A stretch of 34,603 nt of DNA from Minisyncoccota bacterium (GTDB lineage Bacteria > Patescibacteriota > Minisyncoccia > UBA6257 > MFKM01): NCBI GenBank assembly GCA_036169835.1, contig JAVHOD010000052.1, forward strand, positions 1 to 34,603, read 5' to 3'. Numbering within the stretch: position 1 is the first letter of the stretch; the number at the start of each line of letters is the position of its first letter. The notes beneath the pieces were generated by a model. It searched no databases. It had not been told where the DNA came from and was given only the letters and a program-made list of their open reading frames with translations. The position numbers and the translations under genes are program-made. Below are positions 1 through 24,846 of this stretch, one piece after another.

Positions 1-186
1 GCCATTGATAAATTTAAAATATTCAAAGTTTTTTTGTTTGCCTTTCTCGATCAGAGTCATCATCCCGGCCGCCGTTTTCATAAGAAAATTTATCGCTAAG
101 TGGCCCACATTATGATAAGTCGGGGCGTATTGAGCGGCGGGATTGCCTAAACCGACAATAAGACGGTATTTATTTTTTTTATCCAT
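1..186 (-). CDS. pth: Peptidyl-tRNA hydrolase, N-terminal part (gene runs off window start)
   Basis: Reverse translation from ATG (rc of 184-186) reads MDKKNKYRLIVGLGNPAAQYAPTYHNVGHLAINFL..., matching the LIVGLGNPG..Y..T.HN.G Pth N-terminal signature. It is absent from the ORF track because there is no stop inside the window. Confidence 0.8.
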   Translation of the reverse strand, partial: MDKKNKYRLIVGLGNPAAQYAPTYHNVGHLAINFLMKTAAGMMTLIEKGKQKNFEYFKFING

Positions 187-203
187 AATTATTTAGATAA
201 GGG

Positions 204-390
204 CTTGCCCAGTTAACTCAACTCCGAATAAGTAAAAATTTATTGAGATAAATTTTTACTTGAATTGTGCTCCGCTAATCTCTTTCTATTATATTATTGG
301 TATGATCTACATAATATTCTCTATTTCTTTGAACTTAACAATATAAGTAAAGTATAGAAGAATATCATCGGAGTTGAGTTACTGGGCTTG
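204..390. repeat. Inverted-repeat-bounded intergenic element, copy 1 (179 bp core 208-386, flanked by CTTG/CTTG)
   Basis: cccagttaactcaactccga (208-227) is the near-perfect complement of tcggagttgagttactggg (368-386). CTTG lies at 204-207 and again at 387-390. An internal 13-bp hairpin spans 230-261. Confidence 0.75.
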
Positions 391-438
391 ATTTTCGGCT
401 TTTTAACATTATAATATAACAGATATTAATATACTATT

Positions 439-981
439 ATGCGGAAATTTTTTTGGTCATTCTTGGAGATTTTGGAAGTCGTAGCCATTTCCGTTTTTGC
501 CGTTTTTATTATCAGGACTTTTTTGTTTCAGCCCTTTTTGGTCAGCGGCGCCAGCATGGAGCCGACTTTTTCCAACGGGAATTATATTTTAGTTGATGAA
601 GTAAGCTACCGATTCCGCGAGCCCCAGCGGGGCGAAGTGATAGTTTTCGAACCTCCGGTCGGGGGCAGTTATTTCATTAAAAGGATTATCGGGTTGCCTA
701 ATGAAAAAGTGAAAATTCAAGACGGCGAAATTATTATTTTTGATCCAGGGGGCAATAAAATTTTGCTTAAAGAAAGCTATATTCCGGCTGATATCAAAAC
801 CTTCGGGGACTTAGAGGCGGTTTTGAAGCCGGACCAATATTTTGTTTTGGGCGATAACCGCAATTACAGTTTTGATTCCCGCGCCTGGGGCTTTTTAGCC
901 AAAGACAAAATTATCGGCTTGGTGAAATTGAGAATCTGGCCGATTACCTCCGTTATGGCCTTTGGAACGCCGAATTATTAA
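439..981 (+). CDS. lepB: Signal peptidase I
   Basis: 180 aa with an N-terminal TM helix. SGASMEPT Ser box and GDNRNYSFDSR box E are S26 family signatures. Confidence 0.9.
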   Translation: MRKFFWSFLEILEVVAISVFAVFIIRTFLFQPFLVSGASMEPTFSNGNYILVDEVSYRFREPQRGEVIVFEPPVGGSYFIKRIIGLPNEKVKIQDGEIIIFDPGGNKILLKESYIPADIKTFGDLEAVLKPDQYFVLGDNRNYSFDSRAWGFLAKDKIIGLVKLRIWPITSVMAFGTPNY

Positions 982-984
982 ATA

Positions 985-1148
985 TATGCCCAGTGACTCA
1001 ACTCCGATGGTCCATCTGAATTTTCGGAAGAAAATTCAGATGGACAGAAGTACTGGGCAAAGAGTAAGATTAATTAAATAAAACAAAATCATTAATTATC
1101 AACTTTGACATATCTGATAGAATGTCGGAGTTGAGTTAACTGGGTATG
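985..1148. repeat. Inverted-repeat-bounded intergenic element, copy 2 (156 bp core 989-1144, flanked by TATG/TATG)
   Basis: cccagtgactcaactccga (989-1007) pairs with tcggagttgagttaactggg (1125-1144). TATG lies at 985-988 and at 1145-1148; the latter contains the hisS ATG. A perfect 15-bp hairpin spans 1010-1045, and TGATAGAAT lies at 1115-1123. Confidence 0.8.
1115..1123 (+). promoter_or_regulatory. Extended -10-like box TGATAGAAT upstream of hisS, inside element copy 2
   Basis: TGnTAGAAT motif 22 nt upstream of the hisS ATG. The same TGATAGAAT occurs upstream of nrdD (rc of 9959-9967), and TAGAAT occurs upstream of the NYN gene. Confidence 0.4.
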
Positions 1149-2459
1149 GAAGGCGCTAAAAATAAAAAGATCAAAAAAAACAAACAAATTTTTCAGGCGC
1201 CCAAAGGGATGCCCGACATCCTTCCCAGGGATCAGGTTTGGTGGGAAAGAATTTTTGAAGTCGGGAAAGAAGTCAGTTCTCTATATGATTTTTCTTTCAT
1301 TGAAACTCCGATTTTAGAATCGGCGGGGCTTTTTGAAGCGTCATTGGGCGAAGCCAGTGATGTCATTGAAAAGCAGATGTATGTTTTTAACACTAAAGGC
1401 GATCAGCGTCTGGCTCTGCGGCCCGAAGGCACCACTCCGATTTGTCGGGCTTATTTGGAAAACCACATGGGCTATTACGCTCATCCCTTGAAGGTGTTCT
1501 ATCACGGGCCGATGCTCCGTTACGAGCAGCCCCAGGCGGGTCGCTACCGCCAGCATCATCAATGGGGATTTGAGATTATGGGGGATAATCATCCGGTTTA
1601 TGACGCCCAGATAATTTTTGCCATTCACCGTTTTTTGAATCTGTTAAAAATAAAAGGCATCAATTTTCGGATTAATACCATCGGTTGCCGGGTTTGCCGA
1701 CCCAATTACCGGAGAAAACTTTTGGAATATTATCAGCCTCTTAAAAAAGAACTTTGCGAGGATTGCCAGCGCCGGCTGGAGGTTAATCCATTGCGGTTGC
1801 TTGACTGTAAAAACGGAAATTGCCTGGCCTTAAGATCTTCGGCTCCGGTGATTCTTAACCACCTTTGTCAGAATTGCAATAATCATTTGCGGGGTGTTTT
1901 GGAATTCGTTGAAGATAATGATCTGGCTTATATTTCCGACCCTTTTTTGGTAAGGGGGTTGGATTATTACAATCGGACGGTTTTTGAGATAGACGTTCCT
2001 GAACTGAAAATGGCTTTGGCGGCCGGCGGCCGTTACGATTATCTTACGGAGATAATCGGAGGCCAAAGCGTGCCGGGCGTCGGCGGCTCAATCGGCCTTG
2101 AAAGAGTAATTGAGGTGATGAAGCAGCAGCAGATTGTTCCCGAATTAAAATCCAAGCCGCGAGTTTTTTTTATCGCGGTCGGGGACCAGGCGGAGAAATC
2201 GGGCTTGGTTTTGGTGGAAAATATGCGGCGGGCCGGCATTGCCGTCAGCGAAGCCCTGGGCCGAAAATCCCTTAAAGCGCAATTGAAAGCCGCCGACAAA
2301 AAAGGAGTTCCTTTGGTTTTAATTTTTGGCCAAAAAGAGGTTTTTGAAGAGACGATTATTCTCAGGGATATGAAATCCGGTGTTCAAGAAAATATGCTTT
2401 TAAGCAAATTAGTCGAAGAAATTAAAAAAAGATTACATCCGAATCATTCGACCAAATAG
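1146..2459 (+). CDS. hisS: Histidine--tRNA ligase
   Basis: 437 aa. Class II aaRS/HisRS motifs are present (APKGMPD, LRPEGT, GGRYD) plus a C-terminal anticodon-binding domain. Confidence 0.9.
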   Translation: MEGAKNKKIKKNKQIFQAPKGMPDILPRDQVWWERIFEVGKEVSSLYDFSFIETPILESAGLFEASLGEASDVIEKQMYVFNTKGDQRLALRPEGTTPICRAYLENHMGYYAHPLKVFYHGPMLRYEQPQAGRYRQHHQWGFEIMGDNHPVYDAQIIFAIHRFLNLLKIKGINFRINTIGCRVCRPNYRRKLLEYYQPLKKELCEDCQRRLEVNPLRLLDCKNGNCLALRSSAPVILNHLCQNCNNHLRGVLEFVEDNDLAYISDPFLVRGLDYYNRTVFEIDVPELKMALAAGGRYDYLTEIIGGQSVPGVGGSIGLERVIEVMKQQQIVPELKSKPRVFFIAVGDQAEKSGLVLVENMRRAGIAVSEALGRKSLKAQLKAADKKGVPLVLIFGQKEVFEETIILRDMKSGVQENMLLSKLVEEIKKRLHPNHSTK

Positions 2460-2469
2460 ATTAATTCGC

Positions 2470-2892
2470 ATGGATTGTTTATTTTGTAAAATAATAAAAA
2501 AAGAAATACCGGCTGAGATTATTTATGAAGACGAGAACGCTTTAGCTATTTTAGATATTAATCCCCGAGCCCCGGGTCACACGATGGTCCTCTCTAAAGT
2601 TCATAGCGAGACAATCCTGGATTTGCCGGAAAATGAAGTCGGGCCGCTTTTTTCAGCCGTCAAAAAAATTACCCGATTAATCCAAAAAAGCTTGAATCCC
2701 GAAGGGTTTACTATTGGAATCAATCACGGTAAAATAAGCGGCCAGGTCATTGACCATCTGCATATTCACATTATTCCCAGATTTAAAAATGACGAGGGGA
2801 GTTCAATTCACAGCGTGGTCAATAATCCGCCCAAAGAGTCGTTAAAAGAGATAAAGAATAAAATAAAATTACAAAGCGATTATGGAAATTAG
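2470..2892 (+). CDS. HIT-family (histidine triad) nucleotide hydrolase
   Basis: 140 aa with the histidine triad HLHIHIIP. Confidence 0.9.
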   Translation: MDCLFCKIIKKEIPAEIIYEDENALAILDINPRAPGHTMVLSKVHSETILDLPENEVGPLFSAVKKITRLIQKSLNPEGFTIGINHGKISGQVIDHLHIHIIPRFKNDEGSSIHSVVNNPPKESLKEIKNKIKLQSDYGN

Positions 2893-3091
2893 AAAAAAAG
2901 AAAAAGAATCGGTTGCCGGTCTCCTTTACCGCTTCAGTTTAAAGATGAAACAAAGCGGGATACTTCGCGAAGTTAAGAAGCGGCGTTTTTATCATCGGCC
3001 GCCTAATCGCCGCAAAACTCGGATCGCGGCTGTTTATCGCGAAGGCAAAAAGAAAGAGCTGGAGAAAGCCAAAAAATTAGGCGAATTATGA
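2882..3091 (+). CDS. rpsU: 30S ribosomal protein bS21
   Basis: 69 aa, very basic, S21-like core (LLYRFSLKMKQSGILREVKKRRFYHRPPNRRK). It overlaps the HIT stop by 11 nt and the ybeY start by 4 nt. Confidence 0.75.
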   Translation: MEIRKKEKESVAGLLYRFSLKMKQSGILREVKKRRFYHRPPNRRKTRIAAVYREGKKKELEKAKKLGEL

Positions 3092-3492
3092 ACGAAATTT
3101 CGGTTGTCAGTCTGAATAATAAATACCGATTTTTAGAGAAAAAAATAAGAAGGATAACCCACAAATTCCTTCAATTGCTGAAAAAAGAAAATTGTCATTT
3201 AGGGATTTTTTTAGTTACCAGCCGGAAAATGAAATTTTTAAATAAGAAATTCAGAAATAAAGACAAGACGGCCGAAATTCTTACTTTTATTGAACCGAAA
3301 AAATATCCCCATCCGGAATCCAAGTTTAAATTTCTTGGGGAAATTTATTTAAATCCCGATTGTATCGCGCCGGAAAATATTAGCCGTCTGGCAGCCCACG
3401 GCCTGCTTCATTTATTCGGTTTTTTTCACAAGAAAAAAAGTGATAGAATAAGAATGGAGGCTAAAGAATATTTTTTAATTTCCCATGTCTAA
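3088..3492 (+). CDS. ybeY: rRNA maturation endoribonuclease YbeY
   Basis: 134 aa with the zinc motif HGLLHLFGFFH (H-x3-H-x5-H). Confidence 0.85.
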   Translation: MNEISVVSLNNKYRFLEKKIRRITHKFLQLLKKENCHLGIFLVTSRKMKFLNKKFRNKDKTAEILTFIEPKKYPHPESKFKFLGEIYLNPDCIAPENISRLAAHGLLHLFGFFHKKKSDRIRMEAKEYFLISHV

Positions 3493-4708
3493 TATCATTA
3501 CCGGTCTTGATATCGGGTCAAGCAGCATCAAAGTCGTAGTTTCGGAAATCAAAAACAACGGCCGTTTTCTGGTTTTAGGAGCTTTCAAACGGCCTTCGGT
3601 CGGATTCAGAAAAGGGGTTTTATCCGATTTTGAAGACGCTACGGTTTCTTTGAGAAACATTATCAGTGATCTTAAGGGATTAAGCCCTAAAGCGCTTAAA
3701 AATGTTTATGTCAATGTTAATGGCGCCAATATTAAATCTTGTCTTTCAAAAGGCGTAGCCGGCGTGGCGCGGGCTGACAGCGAGATTCGCCGTGATGACG
3801 TTGAGAAGGCCATCCAAGCCTCCCGAGCCGTGAATTTGTCTTCAAATTACGTCGTGCTTCACAATATCACCCGCGAATTTTTCGTTGACGGCATCGGAGG
3901 GATTCAAGACCCTTTGGGGATGACTGGTACCAGGTTGGAAGTGAATAGCTTGGTGGTTGGGGCGTTTAGCCCCATAGTTAACGATCTGACCAAATGCCTG
4001 GAGCGGAACGGGATAACAACTGTCAGCGGCTTGATTTTCGGTCCTTTGGCGGCCAGTGAAGCGGTTTTATCAAAACAGCAAAAGGATTTGGGGGTTTTAG
4101 TGTTGGATATCGGGTTTGGCACTTCCAGTTTAGCCGTTTATGAAGAAAATAAAATTCTTAAAACTTTAAGTTTGCCGATAGGAGCCGGTAATATTACCAA
4201 CGACATTGCCGTTGGCTTGAGAATTCCGGTTGGAGCGGCGGAGAAAATAAAATTAAGTTATGGCTTCGCTTTTGCCAAAGAGACGCCGCGGCGCGAAGTT
4301 TTTAATTTACAGGAAATTGATAATTCATTAAAAGGCGAAATATCCAAACGTTTTCTTTCCGAAATTATTGAGGCGCGACTTGCCGAAATCTTTGAAATCA
4401 TAAATAATGAAATTAAGAGTTTGGACCCCAAGATCAATTTTCCGGCGGGCGTGGTTATCACCGGCGGGGGGGCTAAGTTGCCCGGAATAGTTGACCTGGC
4501 TAAGCAAGATTTAAAATTGCCGGTCCAGATTGGGCTTCCCGAGTTGACTAATTTTGATATCAAAGATTACGATTGTCAGGAGCTAATCAGCGATCCGGAA
4601 TTCGCCACGGCCGTAGGGTTGGCTATCTATGGGCTTAATCATCAGGAAGGAAACTCGCGCTCCTCAATTTTTAATTTGAAAAAATTTTTGCAGAATTTGA
4701 TACCATAA
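3485..4708 (+). CDS. ftsA: Cell division protein FtsA
   Basis: 407 aa actin-like ATPase. It has ITGLDIGSSSIKVVV phosphate-1 and VITGGGAKLPG motifs, and sits immediately upstream of ftsZ. Confidence 0.9.
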   Translation: MSNIITGLDIGSSSIKVVVSEIKNNGRFLVLGAFKRPSVGFRKGVLSDFEDATVSLRNIISDLKGLSPKALKNVYVNVNGANIKSCLSKGVAGVARADSEIRRDDVEKAIQASRAVNLSSNYVVLHNITREFFVDGIGGIQDPLGMTGTRLEVNSLVVGAFSPIVNDLTKCLERNGITTVSGLIFGPLAASEAVLSKQQKDLGVLVLDIGFGTSSLAVYEENKILKTLSLPIGAGNITNDIAVGLRIPVGAAEKIKLSYGFAFAKETPRREVFNLQEIDNSLKGEISKRFLSEIIEARLAEIFEIINNEIKSLDPKINFPAGVVITGGGAKLPGIVDLAKQDLKLPVQIGLPELTNFDIKDYDCQELISDPEFATAVGLAIYGLNHQEGNSRSSIFNLKKFLQNLIP

Positions 4709-4711
4709 GAG

Positions 4712-4956
4712 TATGCCCAGTAACTCAACTCCGATGGTATTCTTCTGTGATAATGCGTTGTAGGATAAAAAGATGAAGTTTATTTTATTGGTTATATCTA
4801 AAGAACCTAACAAAACAAACAGAAGAATACATCGGGACAAAAATCATTAAACCAAGATATATGAAAAATAAAAAACAAAACAAGTTAGTCGAATTAATAT
4901 CAATCAACTCCAAGATGAGAGATTTTTGTCTTTCGGAGTTGAGTTAACTGGGTATG
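4712..4956. repeat. Inverted-repeat-bounded intergenic element, copy 3 (237 bp core 4716-4952, flanked by TATG/TATG)
   Basis: cccagtaactcaactccga (4716-4734) pairs with tcggagttgagttaactggg (4933-4952). TATG lies at 4712-4715 and at 4953-4956; the latter contains the ftsZ ATG. A nested 17-bp stem pairs 4731-4748 with 4819-4835. Confidence 0.8.
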
Positions 4957-6087
4957 ACAAAAAATAAAAAATCCAAAGCTTTTAATCTGGCTCATATTAA
5001 AGTGGTGGGCGTGGGCGGCGCCGGCGGCCATATTATTACCCGAATGGCCCAGAAAGAAGGCATTAAAAACGTGGAATTTATTGCCATTAATACCGATGCC
5101 CAGGATTTGGAATACACTCAAGCTCGCAAGAAAATTTATATCGGCAAGACTTTAACAAGAGGGATGGGAGCCGGAATGAATCCGGAATTAGGCAGGCAGG
5201 CGGCCGAGGAAAATCGTTCCGAAATCAGCGAAGCGCTTCAAGGAGCCGATATTGTTTTTATTACGGCGGGTTTGGGCGGGGGGACCGGCTCTTTGGGGGC
5301 AGGCGTGGTGGCTGACATCGCCCGCGAGATCGGCGCTTTGACCATCGCTGTCGTCACCAAGCCGTTTTCTTTTGAAGGTGCCCAGCGGATGCGAATCGCC
5401 CAGGAGGCCTTAGCTCAAATTAAAACCAAAGTTGACACTTTGGTCGTTATTCCCAATGACCGGATTTTCAATATCATCAATAAAGATACCTCGCTTATTA
5501 AGGCCTTTGAATTTGTTGACGACATTTTAAAAAATGCGGTTCAAGCCATTACCGAACTGATTGTTTCTCCGGGGCTTATTAACTTGGATTTTGCCGATAT
5601 TAAAGCCGTAATGAAAGACGCCGGTTCGGCGATTATCGGCATCGGGGTGACCGCGGGAGCGGAGAGGGCGGCTAACGCGGTAAATATGGCTGTCAATTCA
5701 CCCTTATTGGAAAACTCAATTGATGGCGCTAAAGGCGTTCTTTTCAGTATTTCCGGCGGCCGGGACCTTAAAATGAGCGAAATCCAAATTATCGCCAAAA
5801 GTATTTCTGATTCCGTTGATCCCGGGGCTAAAGTTATATTCGGCGCTTATTACGACCGCCGGCTTCCCGCGAAACACATCAAAGTGACGATTATCGCCAC
5901 CGGATTCAGTTTCGGCAATACGCCTCAAATTATAAAGTCGGGTTCTTTGTTCACCCCTTTATACCAAGACGAGGCTGCGGAAATCGCCGACTTAGACAAT
6001 AAAAGAGAGAAACCGGTTGAAGAAAAAAATAAAGTTGAAGAAAAAACAGAAATTCCGTCTTTCCTGCGCCGCAAAAAACATCGGTAA
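4954..6087 (+). CDS. ftsZ: Cell division protein FtsZ
   Basis: 377 aa with VGVGGAGG and the GGGTGS tubulin signature. The C-terminal peptide is IPSFLRRK. Confidence 0.95.
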   Translation: MTKNKKSKAFNLAHIKVVGVGGAGGHIITRMAQKEGIKNVEFIAINTDAQDLEYTQARKKIYIGKTLTRGMGAGMNPELGRQAAEENRSEISEALQGADIVFITAGLGGGTGSLGAGVVADIAREIGALTIAVVTKPFSFEGAQRMRIAQEALAQIKTKVDTLVVIPNDRIFNIINKDTSLIKAFEFVDDILKNAVQAITELIVSPGLINLDFADIKAVMKDAGSAIIGIGVTAGAERAANAVNMAVNSPLLENSIDGAKGVLFSISGGRDLKMSEIQIIAKSISDSVDPGAKVIFGAYYDRRLPAKHIKVTIIATGFSFGNTPQIIKSGSLFTPLYQDEAAEIADLDNKREKPVEEKNKVEEKTEIPSFLRRKKHR

Positions 6088-6103
6088 ATAAATCTCAAAA
6101 ATC
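6074..6103 (+). repeat. Direct repeat DR1 (covers the last ftsZ codons, the stop and 16 nt downstream)
   Basis: aaaaacatcggtaaataaatctcaaaaatc is repeated at 6909-6935 as aaaaacaccggtaaaatctcaaaaatc, with one substitution and a 3-nt gap. Confidence 0.8.
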
Positions 6104-6151
6104 CGTTTCAGCCTGATTTCAAAGCCAGAGCCTCAATTTTTATTTATAAAT

Positions 6152-6157
6152 TAGAAT
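6152..6157 (+). promoter_or_regulatory. -10-like TAGAAT 5 nt upstream of the NYN gene ATG (possible leaderless transcript)
   Basis: Sequence reads tagaat-caaat-ATG, with no Shine-Dalgarno between the box and the start. Confidence 0.3.
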
Positions 6158-6162
6158 CAAAT

Positions 6163-6663
6163 ATGGCAAACAATGCGGCTTTTATAGATAGTAATAATCT
6201 TTATAAGGCAATGGAGATGATAGGCTGGAAGTTGGATAACGCCAAGTTCAGGACATTTCTTTCAGATAAGTATGATGTTTTGAAAGCTTATTTGTGCATC
6301 GGGTATGTACCGCAAAATCAGGCGATGTACACTAAACTGCAACAAAAAGGTTATATTCTGGTTTTCAAACCAATTCTTACGCTAAAAGACGGAACGACAA
6401 AGGGCAATTGCGACGCCGATCTTGTTTTGAGGGCGATGATTGAATATCCTAATTACGATAAAGCAGTCATTGTCGCCGGAGACGGGGATTATTATTCTTT
6501 GATTGATTACCTGAAATCGCAGAATAAATTAGAGCAAGTTCTTGTTCCCGATGAGGAGAGATATTCCGCGTTGCTTAAAAAGGTGAATGATGAGCATTTG
6601 AAATATATTTCCTTCATCAGTCGGATGAAAAATAAATTAGAATATTTATCGAAGAAGCCCTAA
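6163..6663 (+). CDS. NYN/LabA-like (PIN-related) nuclease-domain protein
   Basis: 166 aa with motifs FIDSNNLY, KGNCDADLV and VAGDGDYYSL, typical of the NYN (DUF88/LabA) domain. Confidence 0.7.
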   Translation: MANNAAFIDSNNLYKAMEMIGWKLDNAKFRTFLSDKYDVLKAYLCIGYVPQNQAMYTKLQQKGYILVFKPILTLKDGTTKGNCDADLVLRAMIEYPNYDKAVIVAGDGDYYSLIDYLKSQNKLEQVLVPDEERYSALLKKVNDEHLKYISFISRMKNKLEYLSKKP

Positions 6664-7088: not shown

Positions 7089-7817
7089 TTAAAGATTTCT
7101 TAACTCGGTAGGCAGATATTTATTGCATTTTTTTTGAATGGTTTCTAACTGCTTTTGTCCGAAGGGTTTGTATTTTTTATATTTCGGGTTGATTGTCTTT
7201 TCGGGTTTGAATTGCTGAAGAAAATATTTTTTAGCGCCTTTTAATTGTTTGGCTATATCTACAATATCTTTTAGTTGGTGTAGTTTCGGTATGATTGTGG
7301 TTCTGAATTCATAATTAATTCCGGATTTTTTGATTATCTCAATGCTTTTTTTAATTTTTTCTAAATTAACTTTCGTCCCCGCCACTTCGTCATATTTTGA
7401 AAATTGGGAATTGGAAATTGGAAATTGCGCCAAAGGCGCCTTTATGTCCATAGCCACATAATCTATGAGTTTTTCATCAATTAAGTTTTTTAACATTTCG
7501 GGATTTGAGCCGTTGGTGTCAAGCTTCACCGCATATCCAAGTTTTTTTATTTTTTTTATAAAATCCGGTAGGTTTTTATTTATGGTAGGTTCTCCGCCGC
7601 AGATTGCCACGCCATCCAATAGTCCTTTTCTTTGTTTTAAAAAATCAAAAAAATCTTTTTCGGAAATTTTAGCGTGTTTGTTAATATCTTCGGCTAAAAC
7701 CAATTCGGGATTATAGCACCAGGGACAGGAAAAATTACAGCCAACTAAAAAAACCGTGGCCGCGATTTTGCCCGGATAATCAATAAGGGTAAGTTTTTGG
7801 AGACCGCCTATCAGCAC
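7089..7817 (-). CDS. nrdG: Anaerobic ribonucleoside-triphosphate reductase activating protein (radical SAM)
   Basis: 242 aa with the CNFSCPWCYN radical-SAM cluster motif and GGEPT. It follows nrdD with a 1-nt gap. Confidence 0.85.
   Translation of the reverse strand: MLIGGLQKLTLIDYPGKIAATVFLVGCNFSCPWCYNPELVLAEDINKHAKISEKDFFDFLKQRKGLLDGVAICGGEPTINKNLPDFIKKIKKLGYAVKLDTNGSNPEMLKNLIDEKLIDYVAMDIKAPLAQFPISNSQFSKYDEVAGTKVNLEKIKKSIEIIKKSGINYEFRTTIIPKLHQLKDIVDIAKQLKGAKKYFLQQFKPEKTINPKYKKYKPFGQKQLETIQKKCNKYLPTELRNL
7399..7439. repeat. Heptamer tandem repeat plus GC hairpin inside the nrdG CDS
   Basis: On the coding strand, aatttcc aatttcc aattccc aatttt encodes QFPISNSQFS. It is preceded by the hairpin gcgcc-aaa-ggcgc (7427-7439), which encodes APLA. 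Confidence 0.7.
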
Positions 7818-10206: not shown

Positions 10207-10656
10207 ATGGCTAATCTTTTACAAGAAAGAATTTTAGAAAAGGAAGAAATTGAAGAATTTATTCCTCATCGGGGAAAGTGGTTGCTTTTGGATAAAGTTA
10301 CGGAAATCCAGGAAAAATCCATTGTCGCCATAAAAACATTTACCGCGGAAGAATGCGAAGGGCATTTTGGGATAGTCCCCGGACATTTAATTTGTGAAGC
10401 TTTAGCTCAAGCCGGCGCCGTTTTGGTTGGTTACCGTTGTGCTTCTTCTGGAAATAAAAAAATTCCGCTTTTAAGGCATGTTACTGACGCAAAATTTATT
10501 TCTGTGGTGAGACCCGGTGAACGAGTGACGCTTGAAGTGGAATTAATAAATTCAAAAGAGGATGTTTTCTTGTTAAGAGGGATGGCCTTGATCAGCCTGA
10601 AAAAAGTTGTCAGCTGGGAAGGAACGGGCTTTGCTACGGATGAATTGAAATTTTAA
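10207..10656 (+). CDS. FabZ/FabA-like hotdog-fold dehydratase family protein
   Basis: 149 aa with motifs IPHRGKWLLLD and HFGIVPGHLICEALAQ. A strong SD aaggaggtg lies at 10193-10201. Confidence 0.7.
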   Translation: MANLLQERILEKEEIEEFIPHRGKWLLLDKVTEIQEKSIVAIKTFTAEECEGHFGIVPGHLICEALAQAGAVLVGYRCASSGNKKIPLLRHVTDAKFISVVRPGERVTLEVELINSKEDVFLLRGMALISLKKVVSWEGTGFATDELKF

Positions 10657-14445: not shown

Positions 14446-16338
14446 TTATTTTTGGAGCGTTTGAGTGAAGACGCGCATTATTGAGCCTGATAAAGATTCC
14501 GGATTAATAGAACCGCTGGGCGGAGGAGTGGTATTTTCGGTTGGCGGCGGAGTTTGAGTTGGCGGGGGAGGAGTATTACCTGTTGGCGGTTGCTGATTTG
14601 CCGGCGGCATCATTCCCTCCGGCGGATTTGTCATTCCCTGCTGGGGTTGTTGAGGTTGTTGTCCTTGTGGTGGCATATTTTGTTGAGTCGGCGGCTGTTG
14701 GTTGCCGGTTGGCGGCTGCTGTTGTGTTCGCATTTGTCCTTGTTGTCTAGGCTGTCCGGGTTGATTAAGTTGACCGGGCTGATTTGGTTGACTTGGTTGA
14801 AAATTTTTACATTCCTCAGGATTAGAAGTGCAGTATTTTTGGCATTCTTCCGGCCCCTTGCAACCGCCTGGACCAGCCTGCTGTGGCATTTGTTGGCCGC
14901 CTGGATTTACAGTCCCTGATCCAGGTTGAAAATTTTTACATTCCTCAGGGGTTTTACACCCGCCCAGCTCTCCTTGTCCGCCAGCCGACATCATACCTCT
15001 GGCGTTTGATCCGCCTTGGTCTTGAGACCCGCTTTGCCCCTGGCCTTGGGTTCCGCCCTGGCCTTGTTGATTTTGTTGATTTGACTGACCAGGTTGATCT
15101 TGGCCTTGCTGATTTTGACCCGGCCTTCTTTCTTGCGTTCCAAATTTTTGAAAACACTGATTGATAGAATCACCAGATTGTCGCCCAATCACAGATCCAG
15201 TTTTCATTTTTTCAACAACATCAGCGCCTAAAGAAGACGATATACAATCCAAAACTTCAGGCGGTATTGAAGAAAAAGAGTCTTTCATTTTTTGCTGGCC
15301 CTCTTCCATCCTTTTTAGATCAGCCTCGGGAATCATTCCATTTTCTTTGCCAAACTGAAAACAAGTTTCTTGATTGTCGGGATTATTGCAAAAAGTATCG
15401 CATTCGTCTTTGTTTTTACAGCCGCCCGGCCCCTTGCCTCCGGTCTTACGAACCATAACCGCGTCTTCTTTGCTCATAAACCCGGCCGCTTCAGCGAAGC
15501 TGGTGCATTCTTCAAAATGAGCGTCTTGCGAGCAATAAGTATTGCATTCCTCTTTGCCTTTACAGGCCGGCGGTTTTATCCCTTGTTTTATAGCCGCCAG
15601 CATTTTTTGGGAGTCGGCTTTTTCTTGTTCGTTCATAAAACCGGCTTCAATGGCGAAATTTGTACAAACTTCCATATTATTAGGTTCGCCGCAGTATTGG
15701 TCGCACGCTTCTTTGCCTTTACAGGGCGGCGGTTTCACGCCTCTTTTTAGAGCCGCCAGCATTTTTTGAGAATCTTCAAGTTCTTTGCCCTGGATAAAAC
15801 CCGCTTCCACGCCGAAAGCCACGCATTTCTCCATATTATTCGGGTCCTCGCAATAAGAATCGCATTCTTTTTTATTTTTACAGGGCGGCGGTTTCACGCC
15901 TCTGGCGATGGCCGCTTGAACTTGTTTGGCTTCCGCCAAATCTTTCGCCGACATTAAATTATTTTTTTCCGCGAAAGAAACGCAATCATTGATGTTGTTG
16001 ATATCGTCGCAATATGTTTCGCAGGCGTCTTTGCCGGCGCAGCCGCCGGGCCCCTTGCTCCCTGACGCCACGAAATTTTTGGCCGTATTGACTTCATCTT
16101 TCGACATCAGGTTGTTTTTTTCGGCGAAATTAAGACAAGCAGTGTTATTGTCCGATTTGTCGCAATAGGTCTTGCAGGATGCCGCGTCTTGGCAATTGCC
16201 AAGCTCCTTTACCGGATATTGGAGATTTGCCGCGCCGGCTGTTTCTTGAGCCAAAGCCACTTTATTAAATAAACCAACCGAGCCGATTATTGCTATCGCG
16301 GAGATGATAATAAAACTTATGAGATATTTTGTTTTCAT
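14446..16338 (-). CDS. Secreted cysteine-repeat protein with a Q/P/G-rich C-terminal half
   Basis: The start is placed at ATG 16338 (MKTKYLISFIIISAIAIIGSVG..., a signal/anchor). It has six about 45-aa modules with C-x5-C-x3-C-x9-C spacing followed by F(A/G)(E/I/V).. helices, plus two partial modules, then long Q/P/G/N low-complexity sequence. Confidence 0.8.
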   Translation of the reverse strand: MKTKYLISFIIISAIAIIGSVGLFNKVALAQETAGAANLQYPVKELGNCQDAASCKTYCDKSDNNTACLNFAEKNNLMSKDEVNTAKNFVASGSKGPGGCAGKDACETYCDDINNINDCVSFAEKNNLMSAKDLAEAKQVQAAIARGVKPPPCKNKKECDSYCEDPNNMEKCVAFGVEAGFIQGKELEDSQKMLAALKRGVKPPPCKGKEACDQYCGEPNNMEVCTNFAIEAGFMNEQEKADSQKMLAAIKQGIKPPACKGKEECNTYCSQDAHFEECTSFAEAAGFMSKEDAVMVRKTGGKGPGGCKNKDECDTFCNNPDNQETCFQFGKENGMIPEADLKRMEEGQQKMKDSFSSIPPEVLDCISSSLGADVVEKMKTGSVIGRQSGDSINQCFQKFGTQERRPGQNQQGQDQPGQSNQQNQQGQGGTQGQGQSGSQDQGGSNARGMMSAGGQGELGGCKTPEECKNFQPGSGTVNPGGQQMPQQAGPGGCKGPEECQKYCTSNPEECKNFQPSQPNQPGQLNQPGQPRQQGQMRTQQQPPTGNQQPPTQQNMPPQGQQPQQPQQGMTNPPEGMMPPANQQPPTGNTPPPPTQTPPPTENTTPPPSGSINPESLSGSIMRVFTQTLQK

Positions 16339-16339
16339 A

Positions 16340-16639
16340 TTATTCAAAAGGATTAGTTTTAACATTTTTAAAGGGGTTAGCTTTGTCGGCCGGATTGACG
16401 TCGGGTTTGCTTTCTAGGGGGTTTGCCCCTACCGAGGGCAGGACGCCTTTGGTGGCGCTTTCGGTTATAGCTCCCGCCGCTTCGCTGGCATTTTCCAATG
16501 CTTGGGTAAAGGCCTGGGACTCGGTTGACTTAGGCGTTGTTTTGGACTTTTTCCAATTACTCCAGTAGAAATAACCGCCGACTCCCAGCCCAATTAATAA
16601 AACGACCGCTATTATTAATAAAAGAGTTTTTTTATTCAT
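16340..16639 (-). CDS. Small membrane-anchored hypothetical protein
   Basis: 99 aa with an N-terminal TM helix (LLLIIAVVLLIGLGVGGYFYW). Its stop lies 1 nt upstream of the Cys-repeat gene start. Confidence 0.6.
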   Translation of the reverse strand: MNKKTLLLIIAVVLLIGLGVGGYFYWSNWKKSKTTPKSTESQAFTQALENASEAAGAITESATKGVLPSVGANPLESKPDVNPADKANPFKNVKTNPFE

Positions 16640-24703: not shown

Positions 24704-24846
24704 GCCAATGTGATTAAAATTTTCAATTACCAATTCTCAATTTTCAATCAATGACTAAATTTTCAATTTCCAAACGTTTGAAAATCAGTTCATTGAAAAT
24801 TTATTAGAAATTAGAAATTGGAAATTAGAAATTCAGACCAAGCCCT
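24704..24846. repeat. AT-rich repeat-laden imperfect palindrome between the adaptor and ATPase genes
   Basis: There are three direct aattttcaat copies on the left. The centre is the palindrome caaacgtttg. On the right are cattgaaaat and four (a/g)gaaatt units (tagaaattagaaattggaaattagaaatt). Confidence 0.7.

Follow-up and report, generated by a model that had tools for sequence, protein, structure and literature searches.

A 34,603-nucleotide contig of a Minisyncoccota bacterium (JAVHOD010000052.1, assembly GCA_036169835.1), referred to here at its full length as the window, carries a pair of inverted repeat arms in the spacer between ftsA and ftsZ and a similar pair between lepB and hisS. 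In both spacers the arms run from just past the stop codon of the upstream gene to the start codon of the downstream gene, and the identities of all four genes were confirmed by Pfam. The arms are 19-20 nt long, with 19 Watson-Crick pairs and one bulge, and the 19-nt arm motif occurs six times in the window, against 0.01 occurrences expected. The window holds three copies of the arm-bounded unit, which are alike only at their ends and are flanked by the 4-bp direct repeats TATG, TATG and CAAG. Comparison with related sequences identifies the arms as terminal inverted repeats (TIRs), the two ends of a mobile element of Patescibacteria that moves with target-site duplication. An earlier note on this DNA had described the arms and their pairing, but had missed that they are TIRs and that the TATG...TATG flanks are a target-site duplication.

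At the RNA level, UAUG followed by CCCAGUAACUCAACUCCGA (4712-4734) in the ftsA-ftsZ spacer is complementary to UCGGAGUUGAGUUAACUGGG followed by UAUG (4933-4956). The arms contribute 19 Watson-Crick pairs and one bulged A (4946/4947), and the two flanking UAUG copies add the four pairs U-G, A-U, U-A and G-U, two of which are G-U wobbles. The total is a helix of 23 bp with one bulged A, and a helix of the same length, with a bulged A and two G-U pairs as well, is found in the lepB-hisS spacer, where 985-1007 pairs with 1125-1148. The AUG codons of ftsZ (4954-4956) and hisS (1146-1148) lie within their respective helices. Three nucleotides follow the ftsA stop codon (4706-4708) before the helix begins at the fourth, and the lepB stop codon (979-981) precedes the 985-1148 helix with the same spacing. 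The earlier note had proposed a helix of approximately 30 bp between the repeats; its existence and coordinates were borne out, whereas its actual length is 23 bp. That the TATG flanks extend the helix through two G-U wobbles, that the ftsZ AUG is paired with the left UAUG copy, and that the left strand starts 4 nt past the ftsA stop, at 4712, had all been stated correctly. RNA folding, which the same note had suggested as a check, gave -69.4 kcal/mol for 4700-4965 (z = -6.5; equalled by none of 200 shuffles) and -66.8 kcal/mol for 972-1160 (z = -9.4), with the terminal helix present in both the minimum free energy and the centroid structure of each spacer. The third copy, on the minus strand at 204-390, takes the same fold (z = -8.7). 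By itself such a helix is a familiar kind of thing, namely the TIR hairpin of a MITE (miniature inverted-repeat transposable element) within an mRNA, and a search of positions 1-6200 of the window with Rfam 15 gave no covariance model match at E <= 1. The interior of the lepB-hisS copy, which belongs to a subtype designated type A, also carries GTACTGGG (1049-1062), complementary to the left-arm tip CCCAGTAC; this alternative pairing could release the right arm and the host AUG, and it is retained by variants in other copies, partly via G-U pairs.

The end motif was scanned for in genomes of Candidatus Jorgensenbacteria, Wolfebacteria and other Patescibacteria, as well as in 120 metagenome contigs. 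All the related sequences, which carry L numbers below, are metagenome assemblies, and site clustering and open reading frame (ORF) calls were made with simple custom scripts. After pairing and de-duplication, 88 distinct TIR-bounded copies of 135-318 bp were obtained from Patescibacteria contigs, and grouping by host gene reduced these to about 69 independent sites. Filled and empty versions of orthologous junctions were compared at about nine sites, five of which have a clean single copy of the duplicated 4-5 bp on the empty side. At gaatTATGAACG (3087-3091) the window is empty and the relative L054 is filled, reading gaatTATGA[159 bp]TATGAAC, and at ttcccATGTCT (3484-3487) the window is again empty and L054 reads ttcCCATG[139 bp]CATGTCT. 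The empty side likewise has a single NATG in the further pairs L136/L120, L088/L052 and L119/L016. The flanks of a copy co-vary (CATG with CATG, AATG with AATG, CAAG with CAAG), and the target duplication is therefore real. Copies at different sites of one genome are 95-97% identical. The units are thus short (<500 bp), multi-copy, bounded by TIRs and flanked by a target-site duplication that is visible in filled and empty sites, as is expected of MITEs.

A number of smaller observations concern these sites. Occupied and unoccupied sites of the same element lie within 5 kb of window sequence, and at the empty ybeY site the upstream ORF whose stop codon overlaps the target has 75 codons. One host start codon, with the same CATG duplication, carries a 139-bp type-A copy in L054 (7894-8032) and a 235-bp copy of a second subtype, type B, in L026 (5876-6110, oriented). 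Swaps between types A and B at one site were also seen in L067 versus L132 and in L119 versus L106. Such swaps imply either recurrent insertion at the same 4 bp or conversion between copies. A 21-nt hairpin module, CAAAGCTGAGCTTAGCTCATG, situated just past the left TIR (columns 27-47 of alignments A2 and A3), is present or absent within both types, and could be a nested mini-insertion or could have been exchanged between subfamilies.

The coding relative with the same ends is a 313-bp form, and its product is a GIY-YIG nuclease and not a known transposase. In the 313-bp copies an ORF of 94 aa starts at the left duplicated ATG, passes through the left arm and is the sole ORF of the unit. The protein matches the Pfam GIY-YIG family (PF01541) with E = 2.5e-17, above the curated cut-off, over residues 11-80 of 94, with no second domain. 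Its nearest solved structures by sequence are the UPF0213 proteins 1zg2 (E = 4e-8) and 1ywl (E = 1.4e-7). A database search returned 537 homologues of 85-100 aa from Patescibacteria, which bear the name 'GIY-YIG nuclease family protein' where they have one. Of the 120 that were inspected, about half begin with MPS, MPG or MPR, which corresponds to ATG plus the left TIR (CCC/CCG-AG...). Seven diverged subfamilies show the same build: NATG, a CCCAGT-type left end, the nuclease ORF, the right end, and then the [N]ATG of a host gene on the same strand. Among the host genes of these subfamilies are smpB, infB, ileS and hepT, together with a NUDIX gene and one for a peptidase M50, and 5-54 nt separate the nuclease stop from the host ATG that follows it. 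L145 and L171 are among the subfamilies in which the flank ATG is the only in-frame start. A tblastn census of the fetched DNA yielded 16 intact ORFs, 14 of which follow this build (ATG plus CCC[A/G]G..., arms pairing at 17-19 of 20 positions, and a host ATG 5-54 nt past the stop). Third codon positions of the nuclease gene are the most variable, and the protein is therefore under selection.

The copies in the window align with the 5' part of the nuclease gene. In small copies the left flank ATG opens short ORFs, and that of the ftsA-ftsZ copy (MPSNSTPMVFFCDNAL, followed by a stop codon) is identical to the GIY-YIG protein at 11 of 11 residues by tblastn. We infer from these matches that the three window copies are decayed derivatives of the nuclease element. 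A GIY-YIG mini-gene that is more distantly related, with inverted ends of 13 nt (ACCCCGTTAGACC and GGTCTAATGGGGT), was also noticed at about 1201-1476 of L175-L178. It sits inside a toxin-antitoxin pair, between the antitoxin (MNT) gene and the toxin (HepT) gene, and its ATG overlaps the antitoxin stop codon as ATGA.

One may ask if these are ordinary MITEs moved in trans by a DDE transposase, with the GIY-YIG gene a passenger and both the helix and the start-codon position incidental. TIRs together with short target duplications are the hallmark of DDE elements, and a 4-5 bp duplication with 'CC' ends resembles what is seen in some insertion sequence (IS) families in the ISfinder family tables. 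Against this, no longer element and no transposase gene with these ends was found among the 142 loci, in which all 110 paired ends span 318 bp or less. The unpaired ends are at contig ends, apart from a sole internal one (L033) that is a degenerate copy of about 115 bp, and a viral collection gave no match to the element ends. Moreover, the only ORF of the 313-bp unit is the nuclease, the nuclease and arm sequences diverge together across at least seven subfamilies, and the start of the ORF in the flank means that the gene is built into the ends. A DDE transposase acting in trans is consequently very improbable in our assessment. The element may prove to be a new transposon class.

The position of the element relative to host genes follows an unusual rule. 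Target duplications are 3-5 bp long and are TATG at most sites; CATG, AATG, GATG, ATG, CGATG and TATGA also occur, the last of these where the upstream stop overlapped the start as ATGA. ATG is found at the right junction of 65 of the 69 sites, four sites being without it, and this ATG opens a long ORF at 57 sites at least, including those of rplB, rpsH, ftsA, ftsZ, hisS, ybeY and smpB. A single orientation is seen in every ATG-flanked copy and in some 30 half-copies at contig ends. TATA, of which the window has 76 non-coding sites, is never an element flank. A preference for TATG combined with the loss of intragenic insertions was considered as a cause of this distribution and was found to be insufficient, start codons accounting for only 15 of the 33 eligible TATG sites in the window (those that are non-coding or at a start codon) and non-coding TATA being left unused. 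Among the 88 copies there are six cases in which the N of the two NATG flanks differs, and the right one is then always T and the left one another base (six cases against none). This bias hints that the right N travels from the donor, and would fit an integrating excised form that carries the donor NATG.

The earlier note had read the arrangement at both loci as a coupling device, in which termination on ftsA or lepB brings a ribosome onto the 5' arm, whose melting releases the AUG of the next gene. The geometry is right for this at both loci, with the stop codon 3 nt before the helix and the AUG in its last four pairs, and at 29 of 69 sites the left arm is preceded, at a distance of 0-20 nt, by the end of an ORF on the same strand. 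A buried AUG would also need help, Shine-Dalgarno motifs being lacking. A ribosome halting at such a stop codon, 3 nt short of the 5' arm, could indeed unzip the helix at its base. As a general mechanism, however, termination of the upstream gene does not hold up, because no more than these 29 sites have such an ORF within 20 nt and the other 40 are without a close upstream gene. In addition, a terminating ribosome would meet the left copy of the AUG first, 4 nt on, and what is conserved is the ORFs of the element, not the distance to the upstream stop. The coordinates recur at lepB-hisS as the note had said, but not as the sign of a designed device: the 'stop, 4 nt, helix' geometry arises because the element inserted at a start codon 4-5 nt past the upstream stop of a tight operon, and is an automatic by-product of target duplication at a start codon in such packed surroundings. 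Release of the downstream AUG by upstream termination is accordingly unlikely to explain the arrangement. Translational coupling as such is plausible, and judging from the reading frames it more likely proceeds via ORFs inside the element than via upstream-gene termination.

The reading frames of the element bear on this directly. The ftsA-ftsZ copy contains a 28-codon small ORF (sORF) that reads through the 3' arm and terminates at a UAA owed to the bulged A, with 6 nt left to the ftsZ AUG. An sORF of 26-28 codons (81, 84 or 87 nt) with an open frame is present in all 25 type-B copies, starting with ATG in 22, GTG in two and ATA in one. It has no in-frame stops, as against 2-6 stops in the +1 frame, and its third codon position is the most variable. 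Its C-terminus, DFCLSELS and stop, shares its frame with the C-terminus of the L179 nuclease, NFCLLK and stop. In the compact elements L171, L172, L175 and L179 the nuclease ORF itself extends into the right arm, and 5-13 nt separate its stop codon from the host AUG. The distances from the stop codon to the host AUG, 6 nt for the sORF and 5-54 nt for the nuclease, are within the spacing for termination-reinitiation, a function that the sequences suggest. Shine-Dalgarno motifs are nearly absent upstream of about 34 genes of the window, where A/T-rich sequence is found instead; the one clear exception is the gene at 10207 (AAGGAGG). Because the genes mostly have no Shine-Dalgarno motif, an AUG within a 23-bp helix should block de novo initiation on read-through transcripts.

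Taken together, we consider it probable that the arms in the two spacers belong to decayed copies of a start-codon-inserting GIY-YIG element, and that start-codon capture followed by a relay of translation explains their arrangement. In start-codon capture, the ATG and initiation context of the host gene would serve to express the nuclease, the left ATG keeping its native upstream context, and the fixed orientation and position of the element would thereby be explained. On a read-through mRNA the paired arms would bury both AUGs, and ribosomes on the element ORFs would then rescue translation of the host gene. At ftsA-ftsZ, a ribosome ending ftsA would re-initiate 4 nt on at the left AUG, translate the 16-codon vestigial ORF (4713-4763) and thereby open the 5' arm; translation of the sORF (4861-4947) would follow through the 3' arm, and the ribosome, stopping 6 nt before the ftsZ AUG, would re-initiate there. 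In intact elements the nuclease ORF, which ends 5-54 nt before the host AUG, would itself serve as the relay. The stronger proposal is that of an undescribed minimal transposon class of about 313 bp, made up of the ends and a 94-aa nuclease, which borrows the host ATG, returns a duplicate of it and keeps the host gene expressed through the relay, and whose decayed offspring retain the ends and, in one subfamily, a relay sORF. On the present sequences we hold this stronger proposal to be evenly balanced between being right and wrong.

Several points weigh against the proposed explanation. The window has no autonomous copy of the element. GIY-YIG enzymes are hydrolases, and joining would need host functions. 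Non-autonomous copies need no nuclease expression and yet sit at start codons, such that capture for expression does not fully account for the insertion rule. Type-A copies have only a mini-ORF of five codons (1122-1139 in the window), which ends with the same UAA and is found in about three quarters of them, and these copies may use an internal promoter rather than the relay, as their promoter-like sites suggest. The helices hardly vary within either of the two large subfamilies, and G-U and A-C mismatches in helices P1-P3 are about equally frequent (8 versus 5 in type A, 6 versus 8 in type B, with flank-derived pairs and one U-G column set aside). The counts therefore lend no support to selection at the RNA (sense-strand) level, except for that one column. 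Conservation in place was considered as a proof of selection and was rejected. In pairs of orthologous sites the interiors are 78-96% identical (78-88% in seven of the nine pairs) and the TIRs about 100%; at four-fold codon sites in the genes on either side, identity is 39-81% (39-69% for eight of the nine pairs). Nearest-neighbour analysis pointed to recent transposition, elements at the same position in different genomes not being closest relatives, and subtypes differ at one site.

The possible internal promoter deserves separate consideration. If it faces outward from the type-A copy, hisS would be transcribed from it with a leader of some 15 nt, no functional mRNA would contain both arms, and the helix would be irrelevant to expression. 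The window has TTATCA-16-TAGAAT with a TG extension at 1096-1123, and TTATCA-16-TAAAAT recurs in 19 of the 41 type-A copies at a constant distance of 22 nt from the host ATG, as against a match in only 19% of shuffles. Such a site is a mere consensus match in AT-rich sequence, however, and half of the copies have a spacing outside 16-18 nt. Its -10 element overlaps the ATG of the mini-ORF, so the signal is ambiguous, and no such site is found in type B or in type C, including the ftsA-ftsZ copy. We regard the promoter alternative as rather doubtful, even for type A.

The inverted repeat is most readily understood at the level of DNA. When six subfamilies are compared, 5-8 of the 20 arm positions differ, yet each pair of arms keeps 17-19 Watson-Crick pairs. 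This co-variation points to selection for the inverted repeat without telling DNA from RNA. When the intact element is folded as single-stranded DNA it forms the same three-helix junction as the small copies, with P1 made by the ends and with P2 and P3 (z = -7.5), and P2 and P3 show a few compensatory changes. On balance we favour the view that the inverted repeat exists primarily because the ends are recognised as DNA. The arms would be conserved and co-vary as element ends, and not for the sake of a function in RNA, and the nuclease probably recognises them as a single-stranded DNA stem, by analogy with the Ssn nucleases.

Another view of the helix is that it is mainly a processing site for RNase III, separating the cistrons or setting mRNA stability, as in the Correia elements. 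A near-perfect 23-bp helix is about a minimal substrate, TIR hairpins of Correia elements in mRNAs are cleaved (PMC10969869, PMC2649163), and GIY-YIG ORFs occur in non-intron rRNA insertions of the candidate phyla radiation (CPR), where excision of the RNase III type is usual (PMC11270868). On the other side, the signature motif of the enzyme (ERLEFLGD-like) was not found in 1.07 Mb of related sequence, which is a fragmentary sample. A cut inside the helix would moreover fall through or beside the host AUG, and the lack of any Rfam match also speaks against such a role. We therefore think RNase III processing quite improbable as the main role of the helix.

Our literature searches gave no report of TIR-bounded GIY-YIG elements or of start-codon-targeted MITEs, and a 2024 review of MITEs in prokaryotes nowhere uses the words 'start codon'. 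Of published systems, the one that comes closest is Ssn (Chenal et al. 2025, PMC11893778), in which a single-domain GIY-YIG protein of 94 aa binds and cuts only single-stranded DNA beside hairpin repeats that flank its own gene, an arrangement described as 'IS-like'. The similarity extends to the size of the protein (about 94 aa, one domain), to the bracketing of the gene by structured inverted-repeat DNA, and to the many further copies of that DNA scattered near genes. According to the authors, the repeat (NTS/SRM) and the protein co-evolve. Ssn differs in having local hairpins of 20-50 nt on each side, whereas here there are two arms of one long-range inverted repeat; neither local SRM-type hairpins on both sides of the nuclease gene nor an NTS-like palindrome were seen in our element. 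The Ssn study describes no target duplications, empty sites or start-codon targeting and covers no Patescibacteria (PMC11893778).

Other short repeats share some of these features. Correia/NEMIS elements of Neisseria, ERIC and RUP are short, TIR-bounded, multi-copy, intergenic and co-transcribed, and their TIRs form an mRNA hairpin. The Correia hairpin is cleaved by RNase III, and some Correia copies create promoters. Correia elements differ in their TA duplication, in having no such coding parent and in their varied distance from genes. The element described here has an NATG duplication at a start codon, a fixed orientation and a GIY-YIG nuclease parent, and its ends read CCCAGT..., unlike the Correia consensus. 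IS200/IS605 and REP/RAYT systems are also very small, with a relation to a short target that is specific for both strand and orientation, ends recognised as folded single-stranded DNA and abundant non-autonomous derivatives. They differ in relying on HUH tyrosine transposases, in having subterminal hairpins and not TIRs, and in making no target duplication. The palindromic elements of Rickettsia (RPE) are likewise palindromic mobile repeats, whose survivors are compatible with host coding sequence. RPE lie in frame within genes and add a peptide, whereas our element separates the initiation context from the start codon and does not alter the host protein.

Homing endonuclease genes of the T4 kind, both free-standing and intron-borne, are a further comparison. 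They too are small GIY-YIG or HNH genes between conserved genes, and their expression is limited by RNA hairpins in which the initiation site is hidden, as well as by translational coupling to the upstream gene, as in the mobE overlap UAAUGA (PMC2988022). Such control is a precedent for the reasonable idea that translation opens the helix. Unlike the present element, they have neither TIRs nor target duplications and pass from allele to allele through the repair of double-strand breaks; they also carry DNA-binding domains, and neither share nor duplicate the start codon of the host. A free-standing homing gene would be confined to its cognate allele, and here about 69 unrelated sites with TIRs and duplications were found. 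The GIY-YIG ORFs noted in non-intron CPR rRNA insertions (PMC11270868) may be relatives.

If the stronger proposal is true, it would account for the presence of the element before essential genes (ftsZ, ftsA, hisS, rplB, rpsH, smpB, infB, ileS) in streamlined Patescibacteria, and would explain how genome-reduced bacteria of the candidate phyla tolerate repeats in such positions. Should the nuclease indeed mobilise the element, a GIY-YIG-based class would be added to bacterial transposons, among the smallest autonomous elements, with a new insertion strategy in which a start codon is borrowed and then given back. The finding gives a context to the mini-genes of Patescibacteria annotated as GIY-YIG nucleases, and it bears on the role of Ssn-type nucleases and their repeats. 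It also offers a natural test case for Shine-Dalgarno-independent initiation, re-initiation and the unwinding of helices by ribosomes. At a practical level, spurious small ORFs (MPSNSTP...) and wrongly placed starts are to be expected from gene callers at these sites. The features of the window are collected in Table 1.

Table 1. Positions of the element copies, their parts and the empty target sites in the window
Feature	Position	Strand	Basis
ftsA stop codon TAA	4706-4708	+	ORF 3485-4708; Pfam FtsA, SHS2_FTSA
Left TATG duplication; ATG 4713-4715 is the original ftsZ start position	4712-4715	+	Direct repeat with 4953-4956; filled/empty sites
Left TIR CCCAGTAACTCAACTCCGATGG, 5' arm; encodes nuclease N-terminus PSNSTPM in intact elements	4716-4737	+	
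Vestigial nuclease ORF MPSNSTPMVFFCDNAL and stop; 16 codons from left ATG, through 5' arm	4713-4763	+	tblastn, alignment
Helix P2, 5' strand (M-V-F-F codon remnant); partner about 4819-4830	4737-4748	+	Fold; 25-copy consensus fold; also in intact element
Helix P3, 5' strand GGGACAAAAATC; partner 4921-4932	4834-4845	+	Fold; consensus fold; intact element
28-codon sORF MKNKKQNKLVELISINSKMRDFCLSELS and stop; UAA 4945-4947 takes in the bulged A	4861-4947	+	Translation; type-B comparison
Right TIR TCGGAGTTGAGTTAACTGGG, 3' arm	4933-4952	+	
Right TATG duplication; ATG 4954-4956 is the ftsZ start	4953-4956	+	ORF 4954-6087; Pfam Tubulin, FtsZ_C
Left TATG duplication, lepB-hisS copy	985-988	+	
Type-A non-autonomous copy, 156 bp, lepB-hisS spacer	989-1144	+	
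Left TIR of type-A copy	989-1010	+	
Hairpin of type-A copy	1010-1045	+	
Right TIR of type-A copy	1125-1144	+	
Promoter-like site of type-A copy	1096-1123	+	
Mini-ORF of type-A copy, ATG TCG GAG TTG AGT TAA	1122-1139	+	
Right TATG duplication; ATG 1146-1148 is the hisS start	1145-1148	+	
Third copy (element 208-386), CAAG/CAAG flanks, 17 nt upstream of pth start (186)	204-390	-	
Decayed GIY-YIG gene fragment in third copy	386->246	-	tblastn E = 4e-9, in-frame stops; alignment
Empty target site TATGA; ybeY start overlapping upstream stop	3087-3091	+	Element present in relatives L054, L026
Empty target site CATG, ftsA start	3484-3487	+	L054: 139-bp type-A copy; L026: 235-bp type-B copy

Two other observations were made in the window, apart from the element. 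A minus-strand ORF of 639 aa (14446-16365) has no Pfam match; within it, at about 15374-16058, a unit of 159 nt (53 aa) recurs in diverged tandem copies. Short repeats of the GGAAATTGGAAATT type are found in two intergenic regions, at 7386-7435 and 24718-24842, once in direct and once in inverted arrangement (41 nt, 83% complementary).

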